IMG/VR virus record: IMGVR_UViG_2778261450_000009
Coordinates: 1 to 22,489 of that record
Direction: 5' to 3' (one strand)
DNA length: 22,489 bases
From: a virus
Lineage: Duplodnaviria; Heunggongvirae; Uroviricota; Caudoviricetes
The notes beneath the pieces are model-generated. The model had not been told where the DNA came from, ran no database searches, and saw nothing but the letters and a program-made list of their open reading frames with translations. Of this stretch, positions 18,851 through 20,067 are shown piece by piece. Numbering within the stretch: position 1 is the first letter of the stretch; every line of letters begins with the position of its first letter. A program made the translations under genes and the position numbers.

Positions 18851-19026
18851 ATATTAAGAAGACTATAATTCTTCCATTTTTTACTAACCGTTTATATGAA
18901 AAGCAACCGTGAATTAAACAGAGTAAAACTGATTTTAATCCTTGCCACAGTGCTTACACTAACAGAAATCATTATTCTCTTTATTGCGCTGTCAGTCGGT
19001 TAAAAATATCGGGATACCACAGACCA

Positions 19027-19215
19027 ATGAGACTGTATTTCACAATAGTAATTTTACTGGCAATTATCGCATGCATTTACGGATTACTTGTTCCGTTCCT
19101 TATATCCATGAAGGATACGATAGCAGTTATTTCTGGCTTTGCACTGGCGTTTCTGACCCCGCCCTGCATTTATGCCATTTACAAGGGGCTTTCTTTCACT
19201 AAGGATAAAAGATGA
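19027..19215 (+). CDS. Small integral membrane protein (62 aa, 2 predicted TM segments) coupled to the SPFH gene
   Basis: MRLYFTIVILLAIIACIYGLLVPFLISMKDTIAVISGFALAFLTPPCIYAIYKG; its stop overlaps the SPFH start (ATGA). Confidence 0.5.
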   Translation: MRLYFTIVILLAIIACIYGLLVPFLISMKDTIAVISGFALAFLTPPCIYAIYKGLSFTKDKR

Positions 19216-20039
19216 AAAAAATTATTTTTGCTTTAGCCATTGTTCTGCCGACAATTGGCCTTGTCGGTTGCGATCGCGTTGAACCAGGTAATGTTGGCAT
19301 CAAGGTAAATAAACTGGGCGACGACAAAGGCGTCGGTGAGGTGGTCGGTGTTGGTCGCTACTGGACTGGCTGGAATACTGAAGTTTATATCTTCCCCACC
19401 TTCAAACAAATGAAGACCTACGATGAACCGTTCAGTTTCCAGATGAGTGACGGTACAACCATCGGCTATCACATCGGTGTGGCCTACAAAGTTGATCCAT
19501 CCAAAGTTACCACGGTGTTTCAGACCTACCGCAAAGGCGTGGATGACATTACCGACACTGACCTGCGCCAGAAGATCGCCGACGCACTCAACCGACTGGC
19601 CAGCAAAATGACCACTGACAAATTTATCGACGGCGGCAAGTCTGAACTACTGGATGCCGCACTTAAAGACATTCAGGAAGAGATGACACCCATCGGCATT
19701 CAGGTAATGAGCCTCTCTTATGTAGGTAAACCGGAATACCCTCCAACCGTTATCGACAGCATTAACGCCAAAGTCACGGCAAACCAGAAAACCCTGCAGC
19801 GCGAACAGGAAGTCAAGCAACGTGAAGCGGAGGCCAACATGCTACGTGCGGAAGCTGCCGGACAGGCTGATGCCATTCGAACAAAAGCCCAGGCAGAAGC
19901 CGATGCCATTCGTTTACGCGGCGAAGCTCTACGCCAGAACCCAGGCGTCATGGAGCTGGAAGCCATCAACAAGTGGAACGGTACACTGCCGCAATACATG
20001 ACCAGTGGTGCCAATACACCATTTATCCAGATTAAATAA
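19212..20039 (+). CDS. SPFH / band-7 (stomatin-prohibitin-HflK/C family) lipoprotein
   Basis: Lipoprotein signal with lipobox LVGC; an SPFH-like core followed by a C-terminal Ala/Glu-rich coiled coil (REAEANMLRAEAAGQADAIRTKAQAEADAIRLRGEAL). AAGGA RBS. Confidence 0.75.
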   Translation: MKKIIFALAIVLPTIGLVGCDRVEPGNVGIKVNKLGDDKGVGEVVGVGRYWTGWNTEVYIFPTFKQMKTYDEPFSFQMSDGTTIGYHIGVAYKVDPSKVTTVFQTYRKGVDDITDTDLRQKIADALNRLASKMTTDKFIDGGKSELLDAALKDIQEEMTPIGIQVMSLSYVGKPEYPPTVIDSINAKVTANQKTLQREQEVKQREAEANMLRAEAAGQADAIRTKAQAEADAIRLRGEALRQNPGVMELEAINKWNGTLPQYMTSGANTPFIQIK

Positions 20040-20044
20040 CTTAT

Positions 20045-20067
20045 ATGCCCGGCAGGCCGCCGGGCAT
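20045..20067 (+). repeat. Perfect 9-bp-stem hairpin (ATGCCCGGC-aggcc-GCCGGGCAT) immediately 3' of the SPFH gene, with no U-tract
   Basis: Read directly from the sequence. Confidence 0.5.

Follow-up and report, generated by a model that had tools for sequence, protein, structure and literature searches.

Two overlapping genes in a 22,489-nucleotide (nt) stretch of Caudoviricetes DNA (positions 1 to 22,489 of IMG/VR record IMGVR_UViG_2778261450_000009, the whole of which is referred to here as the window) encode a 62-amino-acid (aa) protein with two transmembrane (TM) segments and a 275-aa SPFH/Band-7 lipoprotein. Both genes had already been annotated in generic terms, and what is new is that they represent a phage-wide two-gene SPFH module, sometimes fused into one gene, in which the partner is not an NfeD protein. 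The synteny of the two genes across unrelated phage lineages and the existence of natural fusions argue that the proteins are a genuine functional pair, and we tentatively propose, with a confidence that stops somewhat short of even, that they are two subunits of a conserved phage accessory membrane module which would form a split HflK/C-like corral. The features of the module are as follows, with evidence in brackets.

19027–19215, + strand: partner protein, 62 aa, two TM segments, phrog_1130 (open reading frame (ORF), PHROG match and codon signature)
19212–20039, + strand: SPFH/Band-7 lipoprotein, 275 aa, homologue of phiP27 L05 (ORF, Pfam and phrog_200 matches)
19269–19271: Cys20 codon of the signal peptide and lipobox (aa 1–20; L17-V18-G19-C20, with Asp at +2)
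19275–19835, + strand: SPFH domain, aa 22–208
19743–19937, + strand: long helix, aa 178–242 (AlphaFold2 (AF2) model)
19971–19991, + strand: family-invariant K254-W-N-G257..P260 motif (alignment of diverse members)

Conservation of the gene pair and natural fusions

Relatives of the SPFH protein were found by tblastn in 741 phage records, and the obligately lytic lineages among them include Kayvirus, the N4-like Schitoviridae, the PVP-SE1-like Vequintavirinae, Bruynoghevirus and the crAss-like, Lak, phiCbK-like and jumbo phages. The 62-aa partner was detectable by the same means in 67 phage records, PVP-SE1-like and N4-like phages included, and in the PVP-SE1-like phages for which both coordinates are listed (Mydo, SSE121 and EspYZU08) it lies just upstream of the SPFH gene. 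In Proteus phage Mydo, Erwinia phage S6, the P2-like phage P88, VEc25 (N4 species), Pseudomonas phage Ostro, Xanthomonas phage PB119 and Burkholderia phage E173 the SPFH start directly follows an ORF of 62–107 aa or overlaps with it, and all seven products are two-TM proteins with the common motif G..P.L[VI]S..D...V..GFA. With a hidden Markov model (HMM) built from these partners, a match immediately before the SPFH gene was obtained for 19 of 26 SPFH clusters of viral contigs and for 49 of 78 usable loci in species-representative genomes, and the four HMM-negative loci that we inspected (L321, L305, L306 and L290, from two Sphingomonas, a cyanobacterium and Butyricimonas) have a two-TM ORF of 56–86 aa there. 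A gene for a small TM protein also adjoins the more distant phage SPFH genes of crAss-like phages, halovirus HRTV-8, CcrBL10 and Serratia phage BF. The sole true exception that we traced, in Shigella flexneri SFBU1023 and E. coli ECMA0423 (loci L297/L298), has an IS1-like insertion of ~790 bp at the equivalent of window positions 19203–19211. This element is accompanied by a duplication of ~9 bp and uncouples the partner and SPFH genes, creating a natural 'partner-separated' allele.

An earlier note on the window, made from the letters alone, had proposed that the two genes are translationally coupled, and this is upheld by the gene junction. The TGA stop of the partner overlaps the SPFH start codon (ATGA, 19212–19215), a Shine-Dalgarno (SD) sequence, AAGGA, is found at 19201–19205, 7 nt before the SPFH start, and the partner ORF is intact and exactly 62 aa long in 79/79 close relatives with enough upstream sequence.

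A phmmer search with the SPFH protein returned 227 clusters (50% identity) at E ≤ 1e-30, and the best 150 representatives were inspected for fusions. About 20 of these 150 are fusion proteins of 322–392 aa, and their layout is the partner with both TM segments and the motif, then a linker of basic character, a helix that resembles a signal peptide and bears the lipobox Cys, and finally the SPFH domain; in one fusion protein the partner is at the C-terminus. The lipobox Cys is invariant in the 19 fusions that were aligned, and the in-frame fusion was verified on DNA for L274 and for the phage contig L249, in which a large terminase gene lies at a distance of 1 kb. A scan of the viral contigs with one of the fusion proteins (P0177) produced only one partial, distant match. 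The natural fusions are strong evidence that both proteins act together physically (the Rosetta-stone argument), and they also bear on topology, as the partner must end in the cytoplasm because the signal helix which follows it has to export the SPFH domain.

A complete internal lipoprotein signal, made up of basic linker, hydrophobic helix and lipobox Cys, is kept in P0177, P0181, P0164, P0161, P0209, about 15 more of the proteins, and P0168. The fusion precursor may be cut into two subunits by signal peptidase II, to judge from this arrangement, and an internal lipobox serving as the cleavage site between subunits would itself be unusual.

With regard to the neighbours of the module, an origin in the core chromosome was considered as a possibility for Dyella and Sphingomonas; the flanks are not conserved from one Dyella species to another, and PHROG matches in the flanks are ambiguous. 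Guilt by association with superinfection exclusion was dropped as a general line of argument, with a GP17 homologue found in 1 of ~325 loci. VEc25 (L085, 907–1221) has a PF17420 'GP17 superinfection exclusion' protein encoded two genes upstream of the SPFH module, and an exclusion gene is listed beside the SPFH gene of a Vi01-like phage (PMC3220722).

The SPFH lipoprotein

The earlier note had recognised an SPFH-family lipoprotein with the lipobox LVGC and a coiled-coil tail, and each part of that description is confirmed. The 275-aa protein matches PF01145 Band_7 with E = 6e-31 and 108.3 bits versus a cut-off of 23.6, residues 22–208 covering model positions 2–176 of 176, and this is the only Pfam domain above the curated cut-off; it also matches phrog_200 ('lipoprotein') at 1e-114. 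At the N-terminus (MKKIIFALAIVLPTIGLVGC followed by DR) the lipobox is of the classical kind and position +2 is Asp. The AF2 model, whose mean pLDDT is 76, consists of strands at residues 19–94, helices at 96–161, a strand at 163–175 and one 65-residue helix at 178–242, and the full-length Foldseek matches (E ~4e-13) are to PHB1/2, HflK/C and erlin1/2, followed by stomatin, flotillin, QmcA-YbbJ and the vault protein MVP.

Five residues (C20, K254, W255, G257 and P260) are invariant in 12 diverse phage members, ranging from the E. coli prophage to Caulobacter, Bacteroides and Staphylococcus phages. The window protein has both of the features by which we define the SPFH protein of the module within phrog_200, namely the C-terminal KW[ND]G..P...PF motif and the N-terminal lipobox, and the KW[ND]G..P motif is located where other SPFH proteins close their cap. 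On these alignments the lipobox Cys and the KW[ND]G..P motif can be taken to define a phage-centred subfamily, which is not separated out by NCBIfam or Pfam.

We regard the 'serine protease' label given to phiP27 L05 as unfounded, the domain content above cut-off being Band_7 alone. The labels 'serine protease' and 'putative serine protease' are still being propagated, for example in the LC5678xx Stx phages, Erwinia S6, CcrBL10 and Kosakonia, and other homologues are labelled 'transposase', 'transferase' or 'outer membrane lipoprotein', none of which is backed by the domain content.

The two-TM partner protein

The partner has hydrophobic segments at residues 7–25 and 32–50 and matches phrog_1130 at 2.5e-23, a family in the PHROG category 'moron, auxiliary metabolic gene and host takeover'. 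Among close relatives its variable sites fall 11/8/25 by codon position, a coding signature which, together with the intact ORF, marks the partner as a real gene. The motif P23-x-L-I-S27...D30...V34..G37 occupies the end of TM1 and the short loop, with P23 invariant and S27, V34 and G37 conserved in at least 90% of sequences. The positive-inside rule and the natural fusions predict an N-in/C-in topology for the partner, with the conserved loop in the periplasm.

No Pfam match was obtained for the window partner at E ≤ 0.1, and 11 diverse partners match no family consistently; a partner profile compared with the PDB sequences gave chance-level TM matches only. The idea of an NfeD-like partner, raised in the earlier note, is rejected: 0/11 diverse partners match NfeD (PF01957) at E ≤ 1, and a 62-aa protein with two TM segments is too short for an OB-fold domain. 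A two-component spanin (Rz/Rz1-like) was also considered and rejected, given that the membrane subunit is without a periplasmic domain, the lipoprotein, an SPFH protein of 255 aa, has Asp at +2, and the locus lies in the early left arm beside xis/int.

A proposed mechanism

The way in which the two proteins might work can be set out in four steps. The overlapping or abutting ORFs, and the single fused polypeptide of some lineages, show that both proteins are made, and inherited, together. The partner would then enter the membrane as a helical hairpin of N-in/C-in topology, its conserved P-x-L-[IV]-S..D loop exposed on the periplasmic surface, as is indicated by sequence rules and by the topology of the fusions, and the SPFH protein would, by sequence rules again, be exported, lipidated at Cys20 and kept on the periplasmic face of the inner membrane by means of Asp at +2, which is the classical Lol-avoidance signal in E. 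coli.

SPFH proteins such as HflK/C, prohibitin, stomatin, flotillin and erlin are now seen as cages which isolate membrane patches. For the third step, the fold similarity to HflK/C, prohibitin and erlin suggests that the lipoprotein could oligomerise into a closed dome, with the partner hairpins as a transmembrane palisade taking the role of the N-terminal helix in HflK/C-type proteins, and the resulting 'split HflK/C-like' corral would fence an inner-membrane patch. The fourth step is speculative and we consider it rather unlikely: in an infected or lysogenic cell, the corral might alter the access to some inner-membrane machine or the way in which it behaves. The pay-off would most likely be at the envelope, where the corral might block the entry of a superinfecting genome or guard the membrane against premature permeabilisation, and a lysogeny-specific decision is the less likely outcome.

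This preference has its basis in the distribution of the module. The module is found in 388/5426 complete E. coli genomes (~7%), Stx-phage lineages included, and is missing from many members of the same phage genera (PMC8540360). It is patchy and accessory, occupies variable early regions and is carried by lytic as well as temperate phages, a distribution that looks like that of a competition gene acting at the envelope and not like that of a lysis–lysogeny regulator. Exclusion of superinfecting DNA or protection of the membrane is accordingly the function that we favour, well below an even chance though we would place it. A bolder version, which we think unlikely, would see in phages of many lineages a portable 'split HflK/C' organelle, assembled 1:1 or from one precursor cut at an internal lipobox, which captures a specific host machine (FtsH, a DNA-entry channel or a membrane-acting defence effector) and serves as a widespread, hitherto unrecognised exclusion or counter-defence device.

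Several observations weigh against the corral as we have drawn it. In Bruynoghevirus and Kayvirus the upstream gene encodes a protein of one TM segment in which no similarity to the partner could be detected, and the cage and the 1:1 palisade are an extrapolation from other SPFH proteins. The AF2 model was built on a shallow alignment of 27 sequences with identities of 76% or more, and its last 30 residues are of low confidence. The +2 residue varies by clade, being D in the enteric prophages and Burkholderia, E in the Mydo type, Y in N4 and S6, and S-K in Pseudomonas and Xanthomonas, and with this variation some family members may be in the outer membrane and the location may depend on the host; PM0222, an HflK/C-like protein borne by a P. 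multocida prophage, has been reported in outer-membrane vesicles (PMC9872710). A search of PADLOC-DB v2 at E ≤ 0.1 gave no match for the SPFH protein, the partner, a 35-aa ORF upstream of them or four neighbours.

Alternative explanations

Four other explanations were considered alongside the split corral. The first, improbable as we judge it to be, is that the module mimics HflK/C and acts on FtsH, in which case a periplasmic assembly would enclose or titrate FtsH, stabilise CII-like regulators or other substrates, and bias lysogenisation or induction. This is close to what the earlier note had suggested, and the same speculation has been voiced elsewhere (PMC10269572, PMC8540360). HflK is the nearest solved structure by sequence, at E = 2e-4 only, HflK/C–FtsH complexes are among the top fold matches, and the SPFH domain is predicted to be periplasmic as it is in HflK/C. 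The gene also belongs to the leftward early operon, where it is preceded by the genes for a cI-like repressor and a helix-turn-helix (HTH) protein that matches a 'CII-like regulator' PHROG, and a scan of the left-arm small ORFs recognised no cIII-like ORF, in agreement with the earlier note. However, the HflK/HflC equivalog models TIGR01932/01933 score 23–25 bits versus cut-offs of 134–159 (18.6–25.5 versus 134–660 when NF008181 and NF008259 are included), and the prohibitin and erlin fold matches equal those to HflK/C. There is a lone SPFH ORF without a tandem K/C paralogue, with a lipoprotein signal peptide in place of the N-terminal TM helix and no cytoplasmic N-terminal segment; the protein is no orthologue of HflK or HflC. 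Obligately lytic phages, which take no lysogeny decision, carry the module too, as seen in the N4-like, PVP-SE1-like, Kayvirus, crAss-like and jumbo phages (lytic carriage is remarked upon in PMC8540360 itself). This makes it unlikely that the general function is an FtsH/CII role specific to lysogeny, and the proposed link to FtsH, CII/CIII and the lysis–lysogeny decision is weakened accordingly. A broader FtsH-dependent effect on proteostasis during lytic growth (through sigma-32, LpxC or SecY) is possible.

In a second explanation the partner would be a holin-like or otherwise toxic small membrane protein and the SPFH lipoprotein its keeper, timing or sequestering it in lysis timing, lysis inhibition or an abortive or exclusion switch. 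We give this a poor chance. The partner does have a class-II-holin outline (~60–70 aa, two TM segments, N-in/C-in and a basic C-terminus), the Kayvirus genes mbpV–mbpS lie between the endolysin gene lysK and tgl, with MbpV likened to holins by the authors (PMC7150955), and crAss-like phage PhiCrAssBcn2 has a peptidoglycan hydrolase gene two genes downstream. Yet the regions which hold the pair in this prophage, P88, N4, S6, Mydo and Ostro are early regions or serve DNA metabolism and are not lysis cassettes, no endolysin gene is nearby in the window, and only 1/11 partners matches a holin family (E = 0.044), so that the resemblance to a class II holin or pinholin is in general outline only and such an identity was rejected. 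The strict loop motif and the covalent fusion to the SPFH protein better suit a structural subunit than a pore-former.

The third possibility, whose prospects seem to us equally slight, is a general membrane-microdomain scaffold, a flotillin or stomatin–NfeD analogue which would help in the insertion or assembly of phage membrane or secreted proteins and have no competitive role. Bacterial SPFH proteins do organise functional membrane microdomains, the adjacent genes for an SPFH and a small membrane protein recall SPFH–NfeD operons, and QmcA-YbbJ is among the fold matches. MbpS was suggested by the Kayvirus authors to aid the Sec-dependent export of Tgl (PMC7150955). Against this, the partner is without the NfeD OB-fold, and the patchy, accessory distribution given above and the location in variable regions are more competition-like.

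The last explanation, which we consider very improbable, is a lysogenic-conversion (moron) lipoprotein that the prophage would express and that would change the surface of the bacterium or the host–pathogen interaction and not phage biology: a possible promoter of its own upstream and a terminator-like hairpin downstream (both described below), the PHROG category of the partner, the Stx-phage lineage of the carrier and the prophage-borne P. multocida protein, a reported vesicle virulence factor with TLR1/2 signalling (PMC9872710), would all fit, but the promoter is weak, was not reported by a scan and is absent from relatives in which tight coupling joins the pair to early genes upstream, the hairpin has no U-tract here, the carriage by lytic phages of environmental hosts makes a virulence role unlikely as the ancestral function, and Asp at +2 predicts inner-membrane retention and not surface exposure.

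Hundreds of genome papers point to phage SPFH relatives, and the functions guessed for them range from "serine protease" to "lysogeny factor"; in open full text (subscription-only papers being outside the scope) we found speculation on phage SPFH proteins and no functional study. The two-gene module gives experimenters a defined unit and corrects the annotations as protease and as lysogeny marker; in particular, an SPFH gene is a poor reason for classing a therapeutic phage as temperate. Should the corral prove to have a specific target in the host, the module would represent a viral system of a new class, for exclusion or counter-defence at the level of the envelope, and a minimal, genetically tractable model of SPFH cage assembly with a separable transmembrane subunit.

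The segment upstream of the module

Two further features precede the partner gene.

18839–18844 and 18864–18869, + strand: possible weak sigma-70 promoter (GTGACA, 19-nt spacer, TATAAT), read by eye and overlapping the end of the 212-aa gene
18896–19003, + strand: single-TM ORF, 35 aa, intact in phiP27-type loci

The consensus promoter scan did not report the GTGACA/TATAAT pair, the spacer being too long, and TATAAT is retained in most phiP27-type relatives. The 35-aa ORF is intact in 21 distinct nucleotide variants of the phiP27-type loci, where substitutions remain hydrophobic and the distribution of variable sites over the codon positions (10/4/9) is mildly coding-like; it is without an SD sequence and gave no Pfam or PHROG family match. 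In two otherwise collinear prophages (L055 and L072) and in the L022 group, homology to the window stops at ~18854 and restarts at 19036, and the gap (18855–19035) is filled by a 92-aa gene (2541–2819 in L055) for a soluble, basic product. An ATGA overlap couples this gene, which has a strong SD sequence (AGGAGG), to the partner gene, and the relatives which carry it have no intergenic space and lack the candidate promoter segment. Because the 92-aa gene replaces the whole segment, we see the 35-aa ORF and TATAAT as a swappable cassette and not as a third member of the module, and while the earlier note was correct that such an ORF is present behind a TATAAT hexamer, its association with the module is not sustained.

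The downstream hairpin

The module is followed by a hairpin, which the earlier note had described as having 9 bp and no U-tract and had offered as a possible processing or stability element.

20044–20068, + strand: GC-rich hairpin of 10 perfect pairs, 5 nt after the SPFH stop

The hairpin is real, with an RNA folding free energy (dG) of -20 kcal/mol and z = -3.9 versus shuffles, and no U-tract follows it on the + strand, but the pairs number ten and not nine. Its conserved core is 7 bp (20047–20053 with 20059–20065; GCCCGGC/GCCGGGC) and is kept in 17 distinct relatives with a variable loop, and even where a different gene is found downstream (the L022 group); the outer 2–3 pairs occur in this window only or in a minority of the relatives compared. 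All changes in the stem are from G-C to G-U or from C-G to U-G, except for one double change to A-U, and these changes, wobble-compatible on the + strand, fit with a sense-strand RNA stem. In a covariation test the pairs were kept, yet the shuffle controls were not exceeded, giving no statistical support beyond conservation, and a search of Rfam over 18000–21300 at E ≤ 1 found no match.

The homologous stem is followed by a U-rich tail (GTGTTTTG) in the L216 and L224 clades, and in N4, Kayvirus and several other lineages a canonical intrinsic terminator comes immediately after the SPFH stop. In the window the hairpin abuts the SD sequence of the DUF5406 gene (PGAP start 20080), and the hairpin tail is now that SD sequence. 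The element is most likely a degenerate intrinsic terminator or a 3' stabiliser at the end of the module, to go by these comparisons, the U-tract having been lost in the phiP27-type copy, and it looks more like this than a dedicated processing element; on the simplest view the module normally closes a transcription unit, and what is left here is a weak terminator or 3' stabiliser. Because the hairpin is without a U-tract in this prophage, the leftward early transcript probably reads on past it into DUF5406, DUF4222, xis and int.

The consensus scan found the hairpin terminator-like on the minus strand only, where the tail is TAAGTTATTT. A minus-strand terminator was rejected as the principal explanation, as the stem substitutions are wobble-compatible only on the + strand and there is no minus-strand gene to the right, and the hairpin could act in this orientation as a weak block to antisense read-in from the int/att side.

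Source locus and genomic setting

What the window holds is the left arm of an Stx prophage of the phiP27-like kind. By megablast, positions 18700–20200 have 95–96% identity to phiP27 and to a series of Stx2a/2d-converting phages, and an E. coli chromosome has a 99.9% match, located next to yecN and a DUF72 gene. The other genes were placed with the phiP27 annotation and PHROG/Pfam scans and are listed below.

15216–15515, - strand: cro-like gene
15649–16338, + strand: cI-like repressor
16454–16945, + strand: HTH protein, 163 aa, matching a 'CII-like regulator' PHROG
Between the HTH gene and the SPFH module, + strand: ORFs of 121, 62 and 212 aa
3' of the hairpin, + strand: DUF5406 and then DUF4222 genes
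20884–21120, + strand: xis
21176–22489, + strand: int

This gene map therefore places the SPFH pair in the leftward early arm of a lambdoid-style prophage. The PGAP annotation of the 99.9% identical E. coli genome calls the 62-aa ORF (as a hypothetical protein) and the SPFH gene, and does not call the 35-aa ORF. The mechanical ORFs for DUF5406 (20005–20451) and DUF4222 (20360–20725) share ~90 nt, an overlap that is removed by the PGAP starts in the same genome (20080 and ~20483, respectively), and an extra 48-aa ORF (20729–20875) is annotated there as hypothetical.

The N-terminal part of the 163-aa HTH protein (~residues 33–82) matches phrog_5451 and phrog_4587, as does the C-terminal half of the 121-aa protein (17522–17887) encoded two genes downstream, and these two left-arm genes seem to have a module in common. 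The SPFH gene was also found at 27 places in E. coli plasmids, and the homologues P0108–P0114 (76% identity) are on contigs of ~110 kb, which suggests carriage by phage-plasmids or large plasmids besides integrated prophages.

Comparison with known systems

Superinfection-exclusion proteins such as T5 Llp, phi80/N15 Cor, T4 Imm and Sp, HK97 gp15 and P22 SieA are accessory envelope proteins expressed early or from the prophage, some of them lipoproteins, and are patchily distributed over temperate and lytic phages. None is an SPFH protein and none has sequence or profile similarity to the module (PADLOC, PHROG), and the likeness is in the 'lifestyle' of the genes only.

Prohibitin (PHB1/2) and erlin1/2 share the best structural matches with HflK/C, and all of these face the non-cytoplasmic side and fence a membrane patch. 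They differ from the phage protein, to which they are 15–18% identical, in being eukaryotic TM-anchored heteromers which work with m-AAA proteases or endoplasmic-reticulum-associated degradation (ERAD) ligases.

In QmcA and FloT the SPFH domain is cytoplasmic, in contrast to the exoplasmic, lipid-anchored location predicted for the phage protein. The SPFH–NfeD operons to which such proteins belong (QmcA–YbbJ, PDB 8Z5G; Pyrococcus PH1511 with the NfeD/STOPP protein PH1510; B. subtilis FloT–YuaF) have the same adjacent, co-oriented and co-transcribed SPFH and small membrane protein genes, and the logic of the operon and probable co-assembly are alike, with the phage pair overlapping by ATGA. The NfeD OB-fold present in these operons is absent from the phage partner, which has instead the P-x-L-[IV]-S motif and belongs to no Pfam family.

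MbpS of Kayvirus (Staphylococcus phages K, A3R and MSA6) belongs to the same phage SPFH subfamily, with a full-length alignment, the KWNG motif and a Cys at the lipobox position, and its gene is likewise preceded by one for a small membrane protein, with a 1-nt overlap. The latter, MbpV, differs from the 62-aa partner, to which it has no detectable similarity, in having one TM segment and a long charged tail, and the Kayvirus pair is found in the lysis-gene region.

The HflK/HflC–FtsH system of E. coli (PDB 7VHP/7VHQ, 7WI3 and 9CZ2) has in common with the phage protein the SPFH1/2 domain, the long coiled-coil helix and the C-terminal cap segment, and its SPFH domain is likewise on the periplasmic side of the inner membrane, as is predicted for the phage protein. 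It is, however, a K/C heteromer compared with the single phage SPFH gene, and each subunit is anchored by an N-terminal TM helix where the phage protein has a lipobox and would have a lipid anchor. In the phage module the TM helices come from a separate 62-aa protein, or are fused to the SPFH protein in some lineages.

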